Assembly (NCBI GenBank): GCA_964573245.1
Contig: CAZNJA010000014.1
Coordinates: 13,045 to 27,705 of the forward strand
Length of the DNA stretch: 14,661 bases
Source: an uncultured bacterium
GTDB lineage: Bacteria > CAIJMQ01
Reading direction: 5' to 3'
How positions within the stretch are numbered: position 1 is the first letter of the stretch; every line of letters begins with the position of its first letter. Below the pieces are notes generated by a model. It was not told the origin of the DNA, did not search any database, and was given only the letters and a program-made list of their open reading frames with translations. Of this stretch, positions 1 through 12,477 are shown piece after piece. Made by a program: the position numbers and the translations under genes.

Positions 1-6
1 AGTTAT

Positions 7-59
7 GGGCGATTAGCTCAGTTGGTTAGAGTGCTCCGACGTAACGTCGGAGAGGTCAG
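7..59 (+). pseudogene. Truncated tRNA-Val-derived copy: 5' half intact, anticodon arm replaced by a perfect palindrome, T-arm and 3' acceptor strand missing
   Basis: Nt 1-34 are identical to 109-142 (6-nt leader plus tRNA 5' strand and D-arm). CTCCGACG-TAA-CGTCGGAG (34-52) stands where the anticodon arm should be. GAGGTCAG (52-59) matches tRNA 158-165, and similarity ends there. Confidence 0.85.
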
Positions 60-114
60 CATGTTTAGAGTAATGATAGATTTGCTGAGTAGGAGAGCAA
101 GAAATCGTAGTTAT

Positions 115-191
115 GGGCGATTAGCTCAGTTGGTTAGAGTGCCACGTTGACATCGTGGAGGTCAGAGGTTCAAATCCTCTATCGCCCACCA
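115..191 (+). tRNA. tRNA-Val(GAC), 77 nt, CCA encoded
   Basis: Acceptor stem GGGCGAT/ATCGCCC, D-arm GCTC-AGTTGGTTA-GAGT, anticodon arm CCACG-TT-GAC-AT-CGTGG (anticodon 149-151), T-arm AGAGG-TTCAAAT-CCTCT, 3' end ACCA. Confidence 0.97.
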
Positions 192-199
192 GTTCAAAA

Positions 200-469
200 A
201 TGAGAGGATTTGTATACATATTGCATAGTGCAAAGAATGACAGGTATTACATTGGAAGTACTAATAGTGTAGATAGAAGGTTAAAAGAACACATTGCTGG
301 GATTGTAAAAGCAACTCGTAATCTTCGGCCACTATTGTTAGTATTTCAGCAAGAATATAAGACACTATGTGAGGCAAGGCAGGTTGAGCGAAAGTTAAAA
401 AGGTTCAAAAGAAGAGATATAATTGAAAGAATAGTAAAGGGAAAAAAGATATTAATAACAGGCGGTTAG
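200..469 (+). CDS. Stand-alone GIY-YIG nuclease family protein (89 aa, UPF0213/SLX1-like)
   Basis: Motifs FVYIL...RYYIGST...RRLKEH...EARQVERKLK match the GIY-YIG core. The ORF-track start at 155 lies inside the tRNA, so ATG at 200 is the plausible start. Confidence 0.9.
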   Translation: MRGFVYILHSAKNDRYYIGSTNSVDRRLKEHIAGIVKATRNLRPLLLVFQQEYKTLCEARQVERKLKRFKRRDIIERIVKGKKILITGG

Positions 470-576
470 CTTAATTTGGAGTGCTCTCCGAAGAGTCCGT
501 ATACTCGTCCTTTCGGAGTCATCGGACCGACGTTATGTCGGAGAGGTCAGAGGTTCAAATCCTCTATCGCCCACTA
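460..576 (+). pseudogene. Degenerate tRNA-Val copy with a palindrome-replaced anticodon arm and a nested palindromic insertion
   Basis: AGGCGGTTAGCTTAATTTGGAGTG (460-483) aligns to the tRNA 5' end GGGCGATTAGCTCAGTTGGTTAGAGTG. Nt 543-574 are identical to tRNA 158-189 (32 bp). The copy ends ACTA instead of ACCA, and 484-543 holds two hairpins. Confidence 0.85.
487..526. repeat. 40-nt imperfect palindrome with TCCGA...TCGGA ends
   Basis: TCCGAAGAGTCCG (487-499) is complementary to CGGAGTCATCGGA (514-526) at 11 of 13 positions, with a 14-nt loop. Confidence 0.7.
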
Positions 577-594
577 ACTAAAAAGGATAAAAAT

Positions 595-626
595 TAGCCA
601 ATCAATATATTGGCTGTTAGGTTTTT
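595..626 (+). terminator. Possible weak intrinsic terminator or regulatory hairpin just upstream of thrS
   Basis: AGCCAAT (596-602) pairs with ATTGGCT (609-615) around a 6-nt loop, followed by GTTAGGTTTTT. The U-tract is not directly adjacent to the stem. Confidence 0.35.
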
Positions 627-2375
627 ATGAAACAGAACCCTCAAAATGTTCCTCTTGAAGTGTATAGGCATAGCGCTTCACATATTCTTGCCTGCGCTGT
701 TAAAGAACTCTACTCTGATGTAAAACTTGCCATAGGTCCTGCTATTGAGGACGGTTTTTATTACGATTTTGACACCTCTCATAGATTTGTTCCCGAAGAC
801 CTTGTCAAGATAGAAAAGAAGATGCAGGAAATAATAAATAAAGATGAACCTTTTGTAAGAGAAGAGATATCCAAGAAGGAAGCCGTAAAAATCTTTAAAG
901 AAAAAGCCGAAAAATACAAAGTGGAACTCCTTGAGGAAATAAAAGACAAGAAAGTTTCTCTGTACAAATCGGGTGATTTTGTTGACCTTTGCAGAGGGCC
1001 CCATGTCGAATCTACCGGCAAAATAAAAGCGTTTAAATTACTTAGGATTTCAGGTGCTTACTGGAGAGGTAGCGAAAAAAATCCCATGCTTCAGAGGATA
1101 TACGGGACTGCGTTTTATAATGATAAAGAATTAAAAGATTATTTAAATAAACTGGAGGAAGCCGAGAAAAGAGACCATCGTAAACTGGGTAAAGAACTTG
1201 ACCTTTTCAGCACAAATACGGAAGTTGGTACTGGTCTTATACTATGGCATCCGAAAGGCGCTTTAATCAGAAGTATAATGGAAGATTATTGGCGCCAGAG
1301 TCATAAAAAAGGCGGATACGAATTTGTTTTTACTCCGCATATCGGAAAAGCTTCTCTTTGGCAAACCAGCGGTCATTTGCAATGGTATAAGGACGGCATG
1401 TATTCGCCGATTGAAATTGATGAAGTTCAGTATTATATGAAACCGATGAATTGCCCGTTTCATATGATGATTTATAAAAACAGCGTCAGAAGTTACAGGG
1501 AGTTGCCAGTAAGGTTTGCGGAACTCGGAACAGTTTATCGTTATGAGAGGACTGGTGTTCTTCACGGGCTTTCGCGTGTAAGGGGCTTTACGCAGGACGA
1601 TGCGCATATATTCTGTTCGCCTGAACAAGTGGTAGAAGAAATAACAAGAACGTTGAAGTTTTGTCTGTCATTCATAAAAGCATTTAATCTTCCTGCTCCG
1701 TCAATGGAATTAAGCGTGCGCGATCCGTCTAACCCGGATAAATATGCCGGCAGCGACGAAAATTGGCAGAAAGCGGAAGAAGCATTGATAGCCGCTCTTA
1801 AATCGCAGGGATTAACTTATAAAAGAATGGAAGGCGAAGCTGTTTTTTACGGTCCCAAAATAGACATGAAATATTACGATGCTTTGGGACGGGCATGGCA
1901 GGGTTCGACAATACAATTTGACTTTAATATGCCTGAAAAATTTGATTTGTCTTATGTAAGCAAAGAGGGCAAACAAGAGCGCCCGTATATGATTCATAGG
2001 GCATTATATGGTTCGTTGGAACGTTTTTTTGCGCTTTTGATAGAACATTACGGCGGAGCTTTTCCTCTATGGCTTTCGCCTGTTCAGGTAAAAATTCTTC
2101 CGATTTCCGAAGATAATTTGCCTTATGCCGAAGAAATATATTCAAAAATGAAAGAAGCTGATATAAGAGTTGAATTGAATTCCAAAAATGACACCCTCGG
2201 TTATAAAATAAGGGAATCTGAAAAGGAGAAAACCCCTTATATAATAGTGTTAGGTAAAAACGAAGAAAAAGAGAAAACGATTTCCGTAAGAAAAAGAAAA
2301 GAAGGCGACAAGGGTAAAATCGCTGTAGAAGAGTTCATTGAGAATATAAAAAAAGAGATAGAAAACTATAAGTGA
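627..2375 (+). CDS. thrS: Threonine--tRNA ligase (short form, apparently lacking the N-terminal TGS domain)
   Basis: Motifs RHSASHILA, GFYYDF, DLCRGPH, GAYWRG, RDHRKLG, KPMNCP, RVRGFTQDDAHIF, FYGPKID, TIQFDF and HRALYGSLERF; 582 aa. Confidence 0.98.
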   Translation: MKQNPQNVPLEVYRHSASHILACAVKELYSDVKLAIGPAIEDGFYYDFDTSHRFVPEDLVKIEKKMQEIINKDEPFVREEISKKEAVKIFKEKAEKYKVELLEEIKDKKVSLYKSGDFVDLCRGPHVESTGKIKAFKLLRISGAYWRGSEKNPMLQRIYGTAFYNDKELKDYLNKLEEAEKRDHRKLGKELDLFSTNTEVGTGLILWHPKGALIRSIMEDYWRQSHKKGGYEFVFTPHIGKASLWQTSGHLQWYKDGMYSPIEIDEVQYYMKPMNCPFHMMIYKNSVRSYRELPVRFAELGTVYRYERTGVLHGLSRVRGFTQDDAHIFCSPEQVVEEITRTLKFCLSFIKAFNLPAPSMELSVRDPSNPDKYAGSDENWQKAEEALIAALKSQGLTYKRMEGEAVFYGPKIDMKYYDALGRAWQGSTIQFDFNMPEKFDLSYVSKEGKQERPYMIHRALYGSLERFFALLIEHYGGAFPLWLSPVQVKILPISEDNLPYAEEIYSKMKEADIRVELNSKNDTLGYKIRESEKEKTPYIIVLGKNEEKEKTISVRKRKEGDKGKIAVEEFIENIKKEIENYK

Positions 2376-2397: not shown

Positions 2398-4506
2398 ATG
2401 AGTGTAGTTGTTAAGGCGAAAATAGGAGAAAAAGAACTTATCATAGAAACGGGTAAATTAGCTAAACAGGCAGACGGCGCTGTGGTTGTTCGCTACGGCG
2501 ATACTGTTGTTTTGACTACCGTTGTAGCGCGCGAGCTGCAGGATATACCTCCGTTCTTTCCTTTGTTTGTTGATTATAGGGAAATGACATATGCCTCAGG
2601 TAAAATACCCGGAGGATTTTTTAAAAGAGAAGGCAGGCCTTCCGAGAAAGAAATTGTAACATCAAGAATGATAGACCGCCCTCTGCGCCCTCTTTTTGCC
2701 GACGGTTATATGGAAGAGGTGCAAATTGTTTCCACTGCTCTTTCTGCAGATGGAGAAGTTGACCCCGATATATTGGGAATTATTGGTGGTGCAGCAGCTT
2801 TGGCAATTTCCGATATACCTTTCCCTGCTCCTATAGGAGCGGTCAGAATAGGAAGGCTTCAAGATAAATTTATTATTAATCCCACCTATAAACAAGTGGA
2901 TGAAGGCGGATTGGATTTGGTGGTTTGCGGTTGGGAGGATGGCGTGTCCATGGTGGAAGGTGATGCAAATGAAATAGCTGAAGAAACTATTCTTGAAGCT
3001 TTAAAGCTGGGACAAAAGGTTTGCGGCGAAATCTCCGCTCTTATACAACAACTATCCCAAAAAACGAAAGTTTCCAAAAAGGAAGTTAAAGTTATTTCTG
3101 TTCCTAAAGAACTGGAAAAAGAAATAGAAGATTTTGCTTCAAAAAGAATTGATGAAACAAAAAAGATTGAAGGTAGAAAGAACAGAACACTACATATGAA
3201 GACATTAATAAAAGAATGCGTAGAAAAATTCGGTGAGACATATGCTGAGAAACTTGTGGAAATGGCTTTGAACAATTTAGAGCAGAAAAAATTCAGAGAG
3301 AAAATAATTAATGAAGCGGTAAGGGCTGACGGCAGAAAGAGAGATGAAGTAAGACCTATAACATGTGAAGTGAGTGTATTACCCAGAACGCACGGTTCGG
3401 CTGTTTTTACCCGAGGCGAAACACAAAGTTTGGTAGCTACAACACTGGGGACTGCCGAGGATGAGAAAAGAATGGATGAACTGCGGGGAGAATCTTCTAA
3501 GACATTCATGCTGCACTATAATTTCCCAGCGTTTTCGGTTGGAGAAGTCAAACCCTTAAGAGGTCCGTCCCGAAGAGATATAGGTCATGGCAATTTGGCG
3601 GAAAGAGCTTTGAAACCTATGATGCCGAATTGGGATGACTTTCCCTATACTGTAAGATTGGTGTCCGAAATACTTGAGTCTAACGGTTCTTCTTCTATGG
3701 CTACTGTATGCGGCGCGTCGCTTTCCTGTTTTGACGCGGGTATCCCCCTTAAAAAAGCTGTGGCAGGTGTTGCGTTGGGCGTTATCAAAGAAGGCAAAAA
3801 ACATATTCTTCTTTCAGACATTGCGGGATTAGAAGATAAATACGGAGACATGGACTTAAAAATCGCCGGAACCAATGAAGGAGTTACCGCAATCCAGATG
3901 GATGTTAAAATTAAAGGTATAGAATACGATATCTTGAAGGAGGCGTTTCTGCAGTCGAAGCAAGCCAGAAAGCACATATTAGACATAATGGAAAAAACAA
4001 TCGGCTCGCCTCGTGAATCGGTTTCTGTCTATGCTCCGCTTATAACTATTCTTGATATTAATCCTGAAAAAATCGGGGCGTTTATTGGTCCCGGCGGGAA
4101 AAACATACGCAAGATTATTGCAGAAACAGGAGCAAAAATAGATATTGATGATGAGAAAAACAAAGTGATTGTAGCTGGAACAGATAAGGAAAGCACAAAG
4201 AAAGCCGTACAATATGTTGAGGCATATACGCATGAAGTCAAGGCAGGAGAAATATTTGACGCGACAGTGACTAAAGTTATGCAATTCGGCGCTTTCGTTG
4301 AAATTCTTCCCGGGCAGGAAGGCCTTGTCCATGTTTCCGAGTTGGATTCCAATTTTGTTAAAAACGTTGAAGATGTAGTCAAAGAGGGTGATAAATTCAA
4401 AGTGAAAGTGTTAAAAATAGACGAGAAAGGAAGAATAAACCTTTCTAGAAAAGCAATGATGAAAAAGGAAGATAAGAAGGATGGAATTGAAAATAGAAAG
4501 AACTGA
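2398..4506 (+). CDS. pnp: Polyribonucleotide nucleotidyltransferase (PNPase)
   Basis: Motifs ETGKLAKQADG, GKIPGGFFKREGRP, HGSAVFTRGETQ, SNGSSSMA and GDMDLKIAGT; KH (IGPGGKNI) and S1 (FGAFVEI...GLVHVSE) domains; RBS AAGGAG at 2386-2391. Confidence 0.98.
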   Translation: MSVVVKAKIGEKELIIETGKLAKQADGAVVVRYGDTVVLTTVVARELQDIPPFFPLFVDYREMTYASGKIPGGFFKREGRPSEKEIVTSRMIDRPLRPLFADGYMEEVQIVSTALSADGEVDPDILGIIGGAAALAISDIPFPAPIGAVRIGRLQDKFIINPTYKQVDEGGLDLVVCGWEDGVSMVEGDANEIAEETILEALKLGQKVCGEISALIQQLSQKTKVSKKEVKVISVPKELEKEIEDFASKRIDETKKIEGRKNRTLHMKTLIKECVEKFGETYAEKLVEMALNNLEQKKFREKIINEAVRADGRKRDEVRPITCEVSVLPRTHGSAVFTRGETQSLVATTLGTAEDEKRMDELRGESSKTFMLHYNFPAFSVGEVKPLRGPSRRDIGHGNLAERALKPMMPNWDDFPYTVRLVSEILESNGSSSMATVCGASLSCFDAGIPLKKAVAGVALGVIKEGKKHILLSDIAGLEDKYGDMDLKIAGTNEGVTAIQMDVKIKGIEYDILKEAFLQSKQARKHILDIMEKTIGSPRESVSVYAPLITILDINPEKIGAFIGPGGKNIRKIIAETGAKIDIDDEKNKVIVAGTDKESTKKAVQYVEAYTHEVKAGEIFDATVTKVMQFGAFVEILPGQEGLVHVSELDSNFVKNVEDVVKEGDKFKVKVLKIDEKGRINLSRKAMMKKEDKKDGIENRKN

Positions 4507-4915
4507 AGAAGCAAAAAAGCTAAATATTCCTCTCCCTTCTTATCAACATGAAGGAGATGCCGGGCTTGATTTAAGGGCAACTGTTGAGTGTGTAGTGAAA
4601 CAGGGAACAAGACAGACTATACCGACCGGTATCAAAGTAGCAATTCCTTCGGGTTTCTTCGGTCTTGTCAAAGACCGCAGCGGTTTGGCTTCAAAACATG
4701 GAATTCACACGCTTGCGGGGGTAGTCGATTCCGGATATAGGGGTGAAGTTGCTGTAGTCCTTCATAATTTGGGAGCAGAAGATTTTTCTGTTGATATAGG
4801 CATGAGAATAGCTCAACTTTTAATAGTACCGGTTGCCTCTGTTAAAGTAAACGAAACGTCTCTTGATGAAACTTCAAGAGGTACTGGCGGGTGGGGAAGT
4901 ACAGGGCATAGATAA
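4481..4915 (+). CDS. dut: dUTP diphosphatase (trimeric dUTPase)
   Basis: Motifs AGLDL, RSGLA, GVVDSGYRGE, RIAQL and RGTGGWGSTG; overlaps the pnp 3' end by 26 nt. Confidence 0.97.
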   Translation: MELKIERTEEAKKLNIPLPSYQHEGDAGLDLRATVECVVKQGTRQTIPTGIKVAIPSGFFGLVKDRSGLASKHGIHTLAGVVDSGYRGEVAVVLHNLGAEDFSVDIGMRIAQLLIVPVASVKVNETSLDETSRGTGGWGSTGHR

Positions 4916-4916
4916 C

Positions 4917-4944
4917 TCAAAAGTCAAAATGCAAAATTCAAAAT
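4917..4944. repeat. Four tandem 7-mers, TCAAAAK-type
   Basis: TCAAAAG TCAAAAT GCAAAAT TCAAAAT directly after the dut stop codon. Confidence 0.75.
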
Positions 4945-4976
4945 TTCCGAAGGTCTAAAACTTTAATCTATTTTAA

Positions 4977-7190
4977 ATGGTACATAAAAGAGAAATAGCA
5001 ACTGTTGTATGGCTGGGCGTGGTTGTTCTTATGTTTTTGAGTTTAATATCTTTTTCTCCTGCCGATTTAAGCATTCTTAAGAGTCCACCCAATCGCCCTA
5101 CTCAAAATATGATAGGCATAGTAGGAGCATGGGTAGCATTTGGGCTTTATTCTCTTTTTGGCATATCATCCTATTTACTAGTTCTTTTCGGATTGGGTCT
5201 AATTTATCTACAGTTTTTTTCACGTTATGAAACACATATCCGCTCCAGAATAATTGGCTGTGTCGTTTTGCTCTTTTCTTTGACTGTTTTTTTATCTCTC
5301 ACAGGAAAAGGCAGTGTTTTTCTTAAGGGTCTTTTTGTAGAAGATGAAATTCAATTTGCGGGAGGGATAATAGGCCATTTGTTGTCTTCTACAATGCTTA
5401 GTTTTTTTGGCAGTATAGGAACGTATACAATAATGATTACTGCATTTATTGCTGGTGTTATTCTTATATCCTCTTATGAAAATTTTTATTTTTTTCTGTT
5501 GCAGAGAATTAAACGGTTGAAAAGTTATAGAGTGACAAAATCGTTTCAAACACAGAAAAAGAAAGAAGTTTATTCCCCGCCAAGACCAAGTGTTTTGCCT
5601 AAAGAAGAAAATATTAAATCGGACACTGAAATCAAATCGCCCATTCCTGTTAAAACCCATGAAAAGAAAGAGGAGAAAAAATCTGTTCCCGACCTTTTTC
5701 AGACGGAGGAAAAACGCGGAGCAGACAGTTCTTTATTTGCTCTTCCTCCTATCTCTTTGCTTAACGACCCGCCTGTTGAAAAATTGGCAGATGATTCTTA
5801 CATTTATAATAATTCCAAGAAATTGGAACAGGCACTTTCCGAATTTGGAATTGAGGCAAAAGTAACAAGTGTTCAAAAGGGTCCTGTGATTACCTCGTAT
5901 GAAGTCGAACCCGGTGTTGGCGTCAAAGTGGGAAGAATTGTTGCGTTAGCGGATGATATTGCTTTGGCACTTCGTGCCCCTTCTATTAGGATTGTGGCTC
6001 CTATTCCGGGCAAAGCTGTTATGGGAGTTGAAATTCCAAATCCTGCTCCGCGTCTTGTGTATCTGAAGGAAATTCTCCAATCAAAAGAATTTGTAAGTTT
6101 AGGTGCGAAATCGAAACTTGCGGTTGCTTTGGGCAAGGATATAAGAGGCAATCCTCTTGTTGACGATTTGAAAGGGATGCCGCATCTTTTGATTGCGGGG
6201 ACTACCGGCTCGGGAAAAACAGTTTATTTGCATTCATTGATTTCTTCTATACTTTTTAACGCTTATCCGCATGAAGTGAAATTTTTACTTGTTGACCCGA
6301 AGATGGTTGAACTTGCGCCTTTTTCTCAAATACCTCATTTGTTTGCACCTATCGTAACAATGGCAAAGGAAGCTCCCGCAGCTTTACAGTGGATAGTTGA
6401 AGAAATGGAAACAAGGTACGGAAAACTTGCGGAAATGGGAGTAAGACATATTGAAAAATTCAATGAGAAGATGGAACAGGAGAAAAACGATAACGAAAAA
6501 ATGCCTTATATCGTGGTTATTATAGATGAACTAGCCGACCTTATGGCTGTGGCTTCGAGAAAAGTTGAAGAGATGATTATGCGGCTTGCCCAACTTTCAA
6601 GAGCCGCTGGGATTCACCTTGTTCTTGCAACTCAGCGTCCTTCTGTGGATGTGGTAACAGGTGTGATAAAAGCGAATTTCCCTTATCGTATTTCTTTTCA
6701 GGTTTCTGCTCGTGTGGATTCAAGGACTGTTCTTGATTCTATGGGTGCCGATAAACTTCTTGGCAAAGGAGATATGCTCTACCTAGCGGCTGGCGGAAAA
6801 CCTATTCGTGTGCAGGGACCTTTTATTGCCGAAGAAGAAATTGAAAGAATTGTTAAATATCTTGAAAAAATGGGCAAGCCTGATTTTGGCGGCATAGATT
6901 TTCAATTAGATAAAACTAAAAAAGAGCAAGACTCTACACTTCCGGCGGAAAAAGACCCGCTTTTTAAAGAGGCCATAAAAGTGATTTTATCAAGCGGACA
7001 GGCATCCGCGTCACATCTTCAAAGAAGGATGAGTATCGGCTATGCAAGGGCAGGTCGGCTTATTGACCTTATGGAAGAGCAGGGGATAATAGGGCCGCCA
7101 CAAGGTGTTAAGCCGCGCGATATTCTGGTGGGTGAATCGTATTTGGAGAAACTGGAAAACAACAACGGGAAACAAAAGCAGGAAACTTAA
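4977..7190 (+). CDS. ftsK: DNA translocase FtsK/SpoIIIE
   Basis: N-terminal transmembrane region, linker, PHLLIAGTTGSGKT (Walker A), DPKMVEL, IIDELADLM, LATQRPSVDV, LLGKGDML and a gamma domain (LQRRMSIGYARAGRLID). Confidence 0.97.
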   Translation: MVHKREIATVVWLGVVVLMFLSLISFSPADLSILKSPPNRPTQNMIGIVGAWVAFGLYSLFGISSYLLVLFGLGLIYLQFFSRYETHIRSRIIGCVVLLFSLTVFLSLTGKGSVFLKGLFVEDEIQFAGGIIGHLLSSTMLSFFGSIGTYTIMITAFIAGVILISSYENFYFFLLQRIKRLKSYRVTKSFQTQKKKEVYSPPRPSVLPKEENIKSDTEIKSPIPVKTHEKKEEKKSVPDLFQTEEKRGADSSLFALPPISLLNDPPVEKLADDSYIYNNSKKLEQALSEFGIEAKVTSVQKGPVITSYEVEPGVGVKVGRIVALADDIALALRAPSIRIVAPIPGKAVMGVEIPNPAPRLVYLKEILQSKEFVSLGAKSKLAVALGKDIRGNPLVDDLKGMPHLLIAGTTGSGKTVYLHSLISSILFNAYPHEVKFLLVDPKMVELAPFSQIPHLFAPIVTMAKEAPAALQWIVEEMETRYGKLAEMGVRHIEKFNEKMEQEKNDNEKMPYIVVIIDELADLMAVASRKVEEMIMRLAQLSRAAGIHLVLATQRPSVDVVTGVIKANFPYRISFQVSARVDSRTVLDSMGADKLLGKGDMLYLAAGGKPIRVQGPFIAEEEIERIVKYLEKMGKPDFGGIDFQLDKTKKEQDSTLPAEKDPLFKEAIKVILSSGQASASHLQRRMSIGYARAGRLIDLMEEQGIIGPPQGVKPRDILVGESYLEKLENNNGKQKQET

Positions 7191-10797: not shown

Positions 10798-12477
10798 TTA
10801 TTTTAGTATTGCGCCTTTATCCGCGGAAGTTGTCAGGTGAGAATACCTTTTGAGGAAAGGAGATTTTACTTTAGACGGTAAAATTTTCATTTCTTTTTTT
10901 CTCTTTGTTAATTCTTTGTTGTCCACTTTAAGCGAAATTTGTCTTTTCGGGATACTTATATCTATCCTGTCGCCGTCTTTTACATATGCTATGGGTCCGC
11001 CTTCCGCTGCTTCGGGAGACACGTGTCCTATTGCCAGGCCCCTTGTTCCGCCGGAAAAACGTCCGTCGGTAATAAGAGCAACACTTTCACCGAGCCCTTT
11101 TCCCGCAATCGCCGAAGTAGGTGAGAGCATCTCTCTCATTCCGGGTCCGCCTTTAGGCCCTTCGTATCTTATAACAACCACATCACCTTTTTTTATTTTG
11201 TTGGCTACTATCGATTTCATTGCATCTTCTTCGCAGTTAAAAACCTTTGCCTTTCCGGAAAAACTCCACACTTTTTCATTAACTGCAGAACGTTTAACTA
11301 CTGCTCCGTTAGGCGCGAGGTTCCCTTTCAATATGGCAATACCGCCTTCTTTATAATACGGTTTATTGAACGGTCTTATAACTTCAGTATCAAGGTTGGC
11401 GGCATTTTTTACTCTCGGTTCTATTTTCCCTTCAACAGCGGTGAGTTTAAGATTTAATAGTTTTTTCTTCGAAAGTTCTTTCATAACCGCAAGGATTCCG
11501 CCTGCCTTGTCCAAATCTTCTAAATGCCAAGGACCAGCCGGCGATAGTTTACAAAGATTGGGAGTTTTTCTCGAAATTTTATCGAATGTATCCAGTTCCA
11601 GTTTTATACCCGCTTCATGAGCGATAGCCGGTAAATGCAAGACCGTGTTTGTGGAACTGCCCAGTGCCATCTCAACAGTCATAGCGTTCTTAAAAGCTTC
11701 CATTGTGGCAATTTGTCTCGGCTTTATATCTTTTTTTATAAGCTCGACTATTCTCATCCCGACCTTCTTTGCTAATCTTCTTCTCTGTGACATAACTGCG
11801 GGAATAGTTCCGTTTCCAAACGGCGCAAGACCCAAAGCTTCGGATATACAATTCATGGAATTTGCGGTGAACATCCCCGAACAAGACCCGCATGTAGGAC
11901 AAGCGCATTCTTCGAGTTCTGCAAGTTCTGCAGTTTTCATCTTTCCCGATGAGAATTTTCCCACCGCTTCGAATACTGTAATCAAATCAAGAGATTTCCC
12001 TCTTAAATTACCTGCCAGCATAGGTCCGCCTGAAACAAGAATAGAGGGAATATTCAATCTTAGCGCTGCCATCAGCATACCGGGAACTATCTTGTCGCAG
12101 TTTGGAATCAAAACGAGTCCGTCAAAAGGGTGCGCGCTTGCCATAATCTCAACAGAGTCCGCAACAATTTCTCTTGAAGGAAGTGAAAACTTCATTCCCT
12201 CGTGTCCCATGGCTATACCGTCGCATACGCCGATTGTCTGAAATTCCATCGGTGTGGCGCCTGCCATCCTTATACCATTTTTTACTGCAGTCGCTATTTC
12301 CTTAAGGTGTATATGTCCGGGAACTATTTCATTCCATGAATTTGCTATACCGATAATGGGACGTGATAGTTCTTCGTCCGTAAAACCCGATGCTTTCAAT
12401 AGAGAACGGTTCCCCGCCCTTTCAAAACCTTTTTTCATCCTGTCTGATCTCATTTTTATCCTCTCTACTTTATTCAT
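10798..12477 (-). CDS. ilvD: Dihydroxy-acid dehydratase
   Basis: Motifs [72 protein letters not shown] and GHVSPEA. The start could be the ATG at 12477 or a nearby downstream ATG (MRSD...). Confidence 0.97.

Follow-up and report, generated by a model that had tools for sequence, protein, structure and literature searches.

Free-standing GIY-YIG nucleases that act on transfer RNA (tRNA) genes are known from bacteriophages. SegB, encoded in the tRNA gene cluster of phages T4 and T6, is one such enzyme, a homing endonuclease of the free-standing type (PMC2330249). According to a second paper, SegB cuts inside tRNA genes at the motif RAWTSGAAC, and its nuclease activity is needed, together with phage recombination genes, to amplify a 718-bp unit made of tRNA-Tyr and a C-terminally truncated segB; the amplified units are joined by microhomology, the 3′ end of segB to the 5′ end of the tRNA, and SegB homologues are enriched near tRNAs of many isotypes (PMC13096335). 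In our own reading of this motif, which is not that of the paper, its reverse complement would correspond to the T-loop sequence. A cellular arrangement that looks like a fixed, miniaturised version of the SegB one opens the stretch of DNA analysed here, 14,661 nucleotides (nt) of contig CAZNJA010000014.1 from an uncultured bacterium (the window). Its positions 1–576 hold an intact tRNA-Val gene, a gene for an 89-amino-acid (aa) GIY-YIG protein and several defective tRNA copies. SegB of the T-even phages is the closest known system; what is new is the cellular miniature, in which a palindrome overwrites the spare tRNA copies.

GIY-YIG-encoding insertions, described as sparse, have also been reported in ribosomal RNA (rRNA) genes of the Candidate Phyla Radiation, in a paper whose main text does not contain the word tRNA (PMC11270868). 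Full-text searches of the openly available literature turned up no account of mini GIY-YIG genes that are linked to tRNAs and accompanied by tRNA copies bearing a palindrome.

Anatomy and recurrence of the tRNA-linked nuclease unit

An earlier note on this DNA had described three tRNA-Val units (7–59, 115–191 and 460–576), an 89-aa GIY-YIG gene that starts 8 nt past the CCA of the intact unit and ends in the third, and no integrase or transposase gene. ARAGORN, Rfam and repeat comparison bear out the three units, to which must be added a fourth, very degenerate copy (69–102) that the note had missed. The gene is likewise confirmed, with a Pfam match and a TAG stop codon (467–469) that coincides with positions 8–10 of the third unit, and no integrase or transposase occurs among the 13 scanned open reading frames (ORFs) of the window. 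The view that units 1 and 3 are randomly damaged did not hold, as both carry the same conserved, unit-specific palindrome. ARAGORN reports a single tRNA in the window, the intact Val(GAC). Positions 1–34 repeat 109–142, a segment made of 6 nt of upstream flank and the first 28 nt of the tRNA, without a mismatch, and 153–199 matches 538–584 at 87% identity. Rfam accepts 460–573 as a tRNA (32.1 bits against a gathering score of 29) and places an insert of 50 nt in its anticodon arm.

A homologue scan of one genome per species (185,579 species genomes) yielded 141 relatives, and the best 80 loci among them (L numbers below) were analysed; together with four second copies they give 84 ORF copies. 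Their hosts are mostly Patescibacteria, with Omnitrophota, Elusimicrobia, Planctomycetota, KSB1 and bins titled Gammaproteobacteria also represented. A tRNA/GIY-YIG/defective-tRNA layout recurring across tRNA species, which the earlier note had named as support for its reading, is found in these loci. In 58 of the 84 copies an intact tRNA on the same strand begins at an offset of −21 to +18 nt relative to the ORF end, and tRNAs for 11 amino acids are involved (Ala, Gly, Val, Asp, His, Pro, Ile, Thr, Phe, Arg and Asn). In 28 copies this offset is exactly −10, so that a TAG at tRNA positions 8–10 serves as the ORF stop codon. L075 is a 59th tRNA-abutting case, masked by ORF read-through, and in 11 further copies the intact tRNA lies 36–117 nt downstream, usually with a defective copy in between. 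This adjacency is far above background, since the far flanks (at least 600 nt away) hold only about 39 tRNAs in 324 kb. The layout is genuine, goes well beyond what chance would give and belongs to a large family. No integrase, transposase or recombinase is encoded by the 140 nearest-neighbour ORFs of the related loci, and no neighbour family or partner recurs among them.

Partial tRNA copies recur along with the gene. An upstream partial copy (U*) was sought in the 150 nt ahead of the ORF, with a score of at least 12 of 26, in 69 testable copies; 47 of them hold a 5′ fragment of their own downstream tRNA, compared with 16 of 69 when a control tRNA of another anticodon is used. The U* usually ends in the T loop, because a loss of 15–19 nt from the 3′ terminus is commonest (18 of 32 copies scored), and the linker from U* to the ATG mostly measures 0–13 nt. 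A downstream defective copy (D*), running from the 3′ part of the D arm through the 3′ strand of the acceptor, follows the intact tRNA in several loci. The order U*-ORF-tRNA-D* is found in L019, L024, L028, L031, L032, L036 and L076, where U* and D* overlap by about 35–40 nt. In a minority order the intact tRNA precedes the ORF and D* follows (the window, L014, L047, L080 and, in part, L052). L014 (2866–3311) repeats the whole layout of the window, U*-tRNA-Val(GAC)-ORF-D*, and its next recognisable gene downstream, about 1 kb on, is thrS (4298–6070). The nucleases of the two loci are 57% identical and their ThrS proteins 45%, a difference that could mean that the unit was transferred later or simply that a small domain is well conserved. 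The T arm and acceptor strand of the L014 D* differ from those of the neighbouring tRNA. Imported tRNA arms were considered as a general pattern and rejected: only 4 of 69 upstream copies fit a foreign tRNA better than their own, two of these (L006b and L075) are artefacts of tRNA assignment, and L013 (with a weaker reciprocal match in L036, below threshold) and L029 are suggestive.

Several loci show signs that the unit rearranges. Two ORF copies in L059, spaced 378 nt apart, share 263 nt at 100% identity, and L019 has a truncated ORF copy that matches over 168 nt at 93% and lies 323 nt away. Each of these repeats consists of the ORF plus a partial tRNA, which supports the repeating unit of nuclease gene and tRNA copy that the earlier note had put forward. 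That note's second option, a nuclease expressed along with tRNA-like RNAs, may also apply. Both repeats came from a separate repeat search, Tandem Repeats Finder having returned no rows for these two loci. L006 and L054 each carry two full ORFs beside different tRNAs, and L039 and L065 belong to the same assembly. Of the 80 loci, 15 are no more than 300 nt away from a contig end (3.5 expected), an excess which suggests that repeats or strain variation break the assemblies. In an all-against-all BLASTN comparison, most related pairs have only the unit of about 400 nt in common.

The window protein matches the Pfam GIY-YIG family (PF01541) over residues 3–71 at 51.1 bits (cut-off 22.6; E = 1.7e-13). 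In 27 aligned sequences, Y6, Y17, G19, H31 and E63 are invariant and R27 is nearly so; Y6, Y17, R27, E63 and the others are presumably equivalent to the catalytic residues of I-TevI and UvrC (two motif tyrosines, an arginine and a metal-binding glutamate). The AlphaFold2 model (pLDDT, a per-residue confidence measure, 89.5) has the element order E-E-H-E-H-H and fits a three-stranded sheet flanked by helices. In a profile comparison with the PDB the matches are BH0048 (1zg2; 5.6e-14), EF2693 (1ywl; 2e-10) and Slx1 (9.1e-07); Foldseek ranks 1–13 fall to the branch of BH0048, EF2693 and Slx1, its top matches are all GIY-YIG domains, and I-TevI matches distantly. In both sequence and fold, the window protein is closest to GIY-YIG nucleases of the UPF0213/Slx1 type. 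It consists of a single domain of 89 aa, with no second domain and no separate DNA-binding domain detected. The NCBIfam model grpIintron_endo stays below its cut-off (25.1 against 56.05 bits) and covers residues 2–38 only, and matches to PHROG homing endonucleases are weak and N-terminal. A homodimer prediction scored 0.01 (mark 0.42), which speaks neither for nor against a dimer on the palindrome. The wider family is very large, with 4817 cluster representatives at E ≤ 1e-10 among 1.84 billion, and 50,697 cultured-phage records hold just 4 weak matches.

Among 150 database representatives (P0031–P0180), 59 have predicted N-terminal extensions of at least 12 aa. Peptide signatures of read-through from the palindrome or a tRNA arm occur in 27 of these 59 extended proteins compared with 2.3 in shuffles, an illustrative figure because the patterns were drawn from the same data. 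Many of the extensions are palindrome or tRNA-arm read-through, which indicates that gene callers start these ORFs too early. The window protein's own database entry errs in the opposite direction, with 82 aa from a TTG, so that the catalytic Tyr6 is dropped.

On the nuclease tree, the amino-acid label of the adjacent tRNA changes 33 times, compared with 44–54 times in 200 shuffles, so nuclease clades track tRNA identity. The tracking clades (Gly-GCC, Ala-GGC, Pro-CGG, His and Thr) span differently named phyla, and label switches are frequent. The tree is weakly resolved, with 5 of 81 inner branches starred, and relatives share labels anyway. Loci titled 'uncultured Gammaproteobacteria' (L006, L007, L009, L011, L014, L019 and others) interleave with those of Patescibacteria on the tree and have similar tRNAs; the taxonomic titles of these bins may be unreliable.

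The palindrome in the spare tRNA copies

In window units 1 and 3 the same palindrome stands in place of the anticodon arm (Table 1). The window holds 3 matches to the palindrome pattern where 0.57 are expected (at least 3 in 3 of 200 shuffles); two lie inside the tRNA copies, and an unrelated match at 12230 makes up the third. Across the related loci, the core CCGAY...RTCGG occurs 102 times within 100 nt upstream of the ORFs (12.6 per kb), whereas the 324 kb beyond 600 nt hold 42 matches, or 0.13 per kb, no more than chance predicts; the enrichment beside the ORFs is thus about 100-fold over the far flanks. At least one core is present within 160 nt upstream or 260 nt downstream of 75 of the 84 ORF copies, and several of the nine copies that lack it carry variant palindromes instead.

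Two placements can be distinguished by strict flank patterns, with the remaining palindromes falling outside both. In the first, a palindrome of 14–19 bp sits between the 3′ strand of the D stem and the variable loop (21 upstream, 7 downstream); in the second, two adjacent hairpins with the same arm sequence occupy the D loop (20 upstream, 6 downstream). The short forms CCGATG-NN-CATCGG and CCGACGT-N-ACGTCGG occur 29 times each, and in 56 of these 58 short palindromes the base at position 5 can pair with its mirror (T:A in 25, C:G in 31). The palindrome is kept across proteins that are only 45–60% identical. It is a conserved, symmetric element that goes with this unit and with no other feature of the flanks.

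Two other descriptions of the palindrome were set aside. A dispersed REP-like repeat is ruled out by the chance-level density beyond 600 nt and by the window, where the unit's two copies are the only meaningful ones. That the palindrome centre keeps the local anticodon is true, by reading of the loci, for four Gly-GCC loci and not generally.

L040 and L072 are syntenic at tRNA-Pro(CGG) and differ in palindrome class, one carrying the anticodon-arm palindrome and the other the paired D-loop hairpins; either the defective copy was remodelled, therefore, or a conserved site was re-invaded. ARAGORN calls two palindrome-bearing copies tRNAs, as tRNA-Val(GAC) in L078 (about 2840–2912) and tRNA-Ser(TGA) in L056 (about 2890–2975). 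A palindrome can thus be taken for an anticodon arm, which may inflate the number of tRNAs counted in such genomes; L078 may, on the other hand, hold a true tRNA-Val with a palindrome-like arm.

A possible SegB-like cassette and its rivals

In the reading we favour, at about even odds, positions 1–576 are one copy of a SegB-like selfish nuclease cassette that would duplicate its tRNA target and use the palindrome as its own cis site. The anatomy of the unit, its recurrence and its conserved catalytic residues are directly visible in the loci; nuclease activity, targeting of tRNA genes and mobility are suggested by that anatomy together with the analogy to SegB.

Such a cassette might work as follows. 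The ORF would be read from the tRNA promoter together with the tRNA copies, because there is no room for a promoter of its own. The nuclease would cleave DNA within or beside tRNA genes; a probable place for the break is the region of the T loop, at which the upstream partial copies stop. Recombinational repair between conserved tRNA blocks would then copy the ORF and part of the tRNA, with partial tandem duplications as one outcome and homing to the same tRNA gene of other genomes, with occasional jumps to other tRNAs, as another. Selection would preserve one intact tRNA copy. The palindrome of the spare copy, or the paired D-loop hairpins, would be the cassette's own cis site for nuclease binding, cleavage or self-immunity, and may also break up the direct-repeat homology that would otherwise delete the ORF. 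Finally, nuclease levels would probably be kept low, because the stop codon lies inside a tRNA and RNase P processing would strip it from the messenger RNA (mRNA).

The likeness to SegB extends to several features. In both systems a GIY-YIG gene is embedded among tRNA genes of many isotypes. The SegB motif, as we read it, lies at the T loop, and the partial tRNA copies here end in the T loop; the joint between the segB 3′ end and the tRNA 5′ end has its counterpart in the fusion of ORF end to tRNA start and in the tandem repeats. Sporadic, multi-copy, intergenic occurrence is shared with Seg-type homing endonucleases, here by tRNA genes (58 of 84 copies, with several copies in L006, L054 and the L039/L065 assembly). 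In contrast to SegB, the family is cellular (Patescibacteria, Omnitrophota, Elusimicrobia and others) and its protein is an 89-aa catalytic domain with no DNA-binding domain, whose sequence affinity is to UPF0213/Slx1 rather than to SegB or I-TevI. On these two protein features the unit falls outside the Seg family. We know of no SegB counterpart for the fixed duplication or for the palindrome that overwrites spare tRNA copies.

The nearest protein relatives offer a second comparison. UPF0213 proteins (BH0048, EF2693) share the size and single-domain build of the window protein and are its best sequence and fold matches; to our knowledge they have no assigned function and no reported tRNA linkage. 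Slx1 has a RING domain and requires Slx4, whereas no C-terminal RING is present in the single domain here and no partner recurs among the 140 flanking ORFs. Neither UPF0213 nor Slx1 is known to us to have a cognate palindrome.

As in the rRNA-gene insertions of the Candidate Phyla Radiation, a GIY-YIG gene occurs in the same host group in or next to structural-RNA genes, with no recognisable intron ribozyme and with a preference for loops of the RNA fold (PMC11270868). Those insertions lie in rRNA genes, whereas the three rRNA-spacer units found here (L002, L008 and L056) adjoin tRNA-Ile or tRNA-Ala. These three occupy the spacer of an rRNA operon downstream of the 16S rRNA gene (758–2559 and 3001–3331 in L008), fused to tRNA-Ala(TGC) or next to tRNA-Ile(GAT), and their upstream rRNA sequences are 72–92% identical. 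A group I intron in a tRNA gene was considered and rejected: no intron family match was obtained in window positions 1–800 (E ≤ 10) or in 8 related loci (E ≤ 0.5), and the non-coding parts are too short.

Two classes of mobile element share part of the anatomy. Like the islands and prophages that tyrosine integrases place in tRNA genes, the unit uses a tRNA as landing site, is flanked by a partial duplicate and preserves one functional tRNA. It differs from them in lacking an integrase (13 window and 140 neighbour ORFs), in an insert of about 300–450 nt where theirs measures kilobases, in duplicates that are 5′ or internal tRNA parts reaching to the T loop where theirs are 3′ ends, and in the specific palindrome of the spare copy. 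With REP/RAYT and IS200/IS605 elements it shares a short conserved palindrome and one small nuclease-type gene without classical transposase ends; the enzyme here is a GIY-YIG protein where theirs is an HUH Y1 transposase, and the hairpins lie inside tRNA-derived copies instead of being dispersed.

A number of points weigh against the selfish cassette. No cleavage site, empty site or presence/absence polymorphism is seen in the collection, which does not allow close strain comparisons because each species is represented by one genome. The T loop of the intact tRNA beside the ORF is of the ordinary kind, so that how the element spares its own tRNA is unexplained; self-immunity through a mutated T loop was examined and rejected, GTCCRA variants being found in 7 of 83 adjacent tRNAs and 5 of 66 others. 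How an 89-aa domain without the DNA-binding domain of SegB or I-TevI would find its site is likewise unexplained, and its nearest relatives are structure-specific (Slx1) or uncharacterised (UPF0213), not site-specific homing enzymes. Direct evidence of tRNA arms travelling with the ORF is thin, and the nuclease tree, as noted, is poorly resolved. The unit has moreover been kept in the syntenic pairs L040/L072 and L009/L016 though their flanks have diverged to 65–70% identity, and the window and L014 have their layout and nearby thrS in common despite the low identity of their ThrS proteins. Such long retention fits a useful gene too.

In a different account, the protein is a domesticated, host-useful UPF0213/Slx1-like nuclease, co-transcribed with tRNAs, that clears branched or folded DNA (R-loops, cloverleaf or cruciform structures) at busy tRNA genes and leaves partial copies as by-products of repair. 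This account, which we regard as unlikely, draws on the nearest solved relatives (the structure-specific Slx1 and the stand-alone UPF0213 proteins), on catalytic residues kept across a very large family and on persistence at syntenic loci over deep divergence; an ORF that can be expressed only by read-through from the tRNA promoter, with its short linker ahead of the ATG, also fits. It sits poorly with the patchy spread of the subfamily, whose patterns gave only the 141 matches in all the species genomes scanned, and with several copies by different tRNAs in one genome or locus (L006, L054, L039 with L065). Truncated and identical tandem ORF copies, contig-end enrichment and the different palindrome classes of syntenic L040 and L072 also count against it, and it offers no reason for a conserved palindrome overwriting the spare tRNA copies.

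The palindrome is central to a second alternative, a cassette ended by palindromes [palindrome - ORF + intact tRNA - palindrome], whose nuclease would cut the palindrome so that the cassette enters or replaces the anticodon arm of a resident tRNA gene and splits it into U* and D*. By supplying a replacement tRNA, such a cassette would make its own loss cost the cell that tRNA. The overlap of U* and D*, centred on the palindrome, resembles a long target duplication (L076, L032, L019, L028), and the match between window positions 36–59 and 527–550 (92% identity) is of the same kind. The two genes lie between the split halves in either order, with the ORF first in L076 and the tRNA first in the window and L014; the T arm and acceptor of the L014 D* are unlike those of the adjacent tRNA, and nuclease clades follow tRNA identity. 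Most loci, however, have U* and an intact tRNA with no D*, and for 54 of the 84 copies the 260 nt downstream are free of palindromes. Where tRNA parts adjoin the palindrome they usually fit the local tRNA, and neither a free or circular form nor an empty palindrome-bearing target is seen. A palindrome-ended cassette appears quite improbable.

A third alternative places the function in RNA: the tRNA-like copies would control the nuclease mRNA as an attenuator, a type III-like RNA antitoxin, or a tRNA-shaped scaffold that competes with RNase P processing. The hairpins do replace or enter cloverleaf loops (the anticodon arm, or the D loop after GG) at arm-like lengths, the palindrome arms covary, and the copies lie within the presumed transcript, 10–45 nt before the ATG in most loci. 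Some palindrome-bearing copies pass ARAGORN as tRNAs (L056, L078), and window positions 460–576 fold somewhat better than shuffles (z = −2.0). A fixed regulatory role nevertheless predicts a fixed position, whereas the palindrome lies upstream or downstream of the ORF (type A loci as opposed to the window, L014 and L052). Complementarity often reaches the centre (7+7 or 7+1+7) and leaves no hairpin loop, which suits a duplex-DNA site and a symmetric binder, and many copies are truncated and unable to fold as a tRNA. Arm mismatches show no strand bias (G.T 17, A.C 19), a count that is uninformative, and the inner pairs of long hairpins are poorly defined. A regulatory RNA is a very doubtful explanation.

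An assembly artefact or chance resemblance has a negligible probability: although repeats close to contig ends are error-prone and the last ~30 nt of L058 (at a contig end, inside a tRNA) presumably derive from a sequencing adapter rather than the genome, 80 independent assemblies, drawn from many projects, show the same architecture in diverged copies, the window's exact repeat measures just 34 nt, and tRNA and palindrome enrichment is about 100-fold over the flanks.

Beyond the SegB-like cassette, the palindrome-bearing mini GIY-YIG unit might represent a hitherto unrecognised kind of mobile element that needs no recombinase, a proposal that is tentative and on the doubtful side. A structure- or palindrome-specific nuclease would write its own site over the anticodon arm (or the D loop) of a tRNA gene copy, split the copy and carry a working replacement tRNA; as this tRNA would travel with the element, the cell could not lose one without the other.

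If the SegB-like reading is true, the unit would be a cellular counterpart of phage SegB and would show that nucleases drive the duplication of tRNA genes in uncultured bacteria with small genomes, in which a given tRNA gene is, as a rule, essential and present only once. It would offer a possible route for tRNA gene duplication and identity change. An 89-aa nuclease gene, among the smallest conceivable, paired with a defined palindrome of 14–19 bp makes the enzyme-plus-site hypothesis testable at the bench. The unit also accounts for tRNA pseudogenes that pass, or nearly pass, tRNA finders, for mis-started gene calls and for contig breaks at tRNA loci in metagenome-assembled genomes.

The window locus in detail

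The coordinates of the unit and of its downstream neighbourhood are collected in Table 1.

Table 1. Features at the start of the window, with the comparison or program behind each
Feature	Positions	Strand	Basis or comparison
AGTTAT, 6-nt duplicate of the flank preceding the intact tRNA	1..6	+	1–34 vs 109–142, 100% identity
Defective copy 1 (U*): tRNA-Val acceptor 5′ strand and D arm, same as 115–141	7..33	+	
Palindrome CTCCGACGTAACGTCGGAG in the anticodon-arm place of copy 1	34..52	+	near-identical version in L010
Variable loop and first T-stem bases of copy 1, which ends here	53..59	+	36–59 vs 527–550, 92%
Fourth tRNA copy, strongly degenerate (flank and tRNA 5′ part), in the 60–108 spacer	69..102	+	62% to 1–34; weak
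Intact tRNA-Val(GAC) with encoded CCA, functional copy	115..191	+	ARAGORN; Rfam 72 bits
GIY-YIG nuclease gene, 89 aa, catalytic domain only	200..469	+	Pfam PF01541
Defective copy 3 (D*): acceptor 5′ strand and D arm in diverged form; the last ORF codons overlap it	460..485	+	Rfam
Hairpin-forming filler of about 40 nt ahead of the palindrome, copy 3	486..524	+	Rfam insert; fold
Palindrome GACCGACGTTATGTCGGAG at the anticodon-arm position of copy 3	525..543	+	
Variable loop, T arm, acceptor 3′ strand and discriminator of copy 3, as in the intact tRNA; then CTA, not CCA	544..576	+	
Hairpin resembling a bidirectional terminator, flanked by T runs on both strands; separates the unit from thrS	595..616	.	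consensus scan only
thrS	627–2375		NCBIfam TIGR00418

The other 12 scanned ORFs of the window are housekeeping genes (thrS, pnp, dut, ftsK, map and others). A stretch of the T loop and T-stem 3′ strand, CAAATCCTCT, which occurs in both the intact tRNA and copy 3 (171–180 and 556–565), is perfectly complementary to codons 2–5 of the ORF, AGAGGATTTG (203–212). Chance is estimated to give about 0.2 such 10-nt complementary matches in 700 nt; the complementarity could reflect pairing within a tRNA-mRNA co-transcript or a relic of a T arm at the 5′ end of the cassette.

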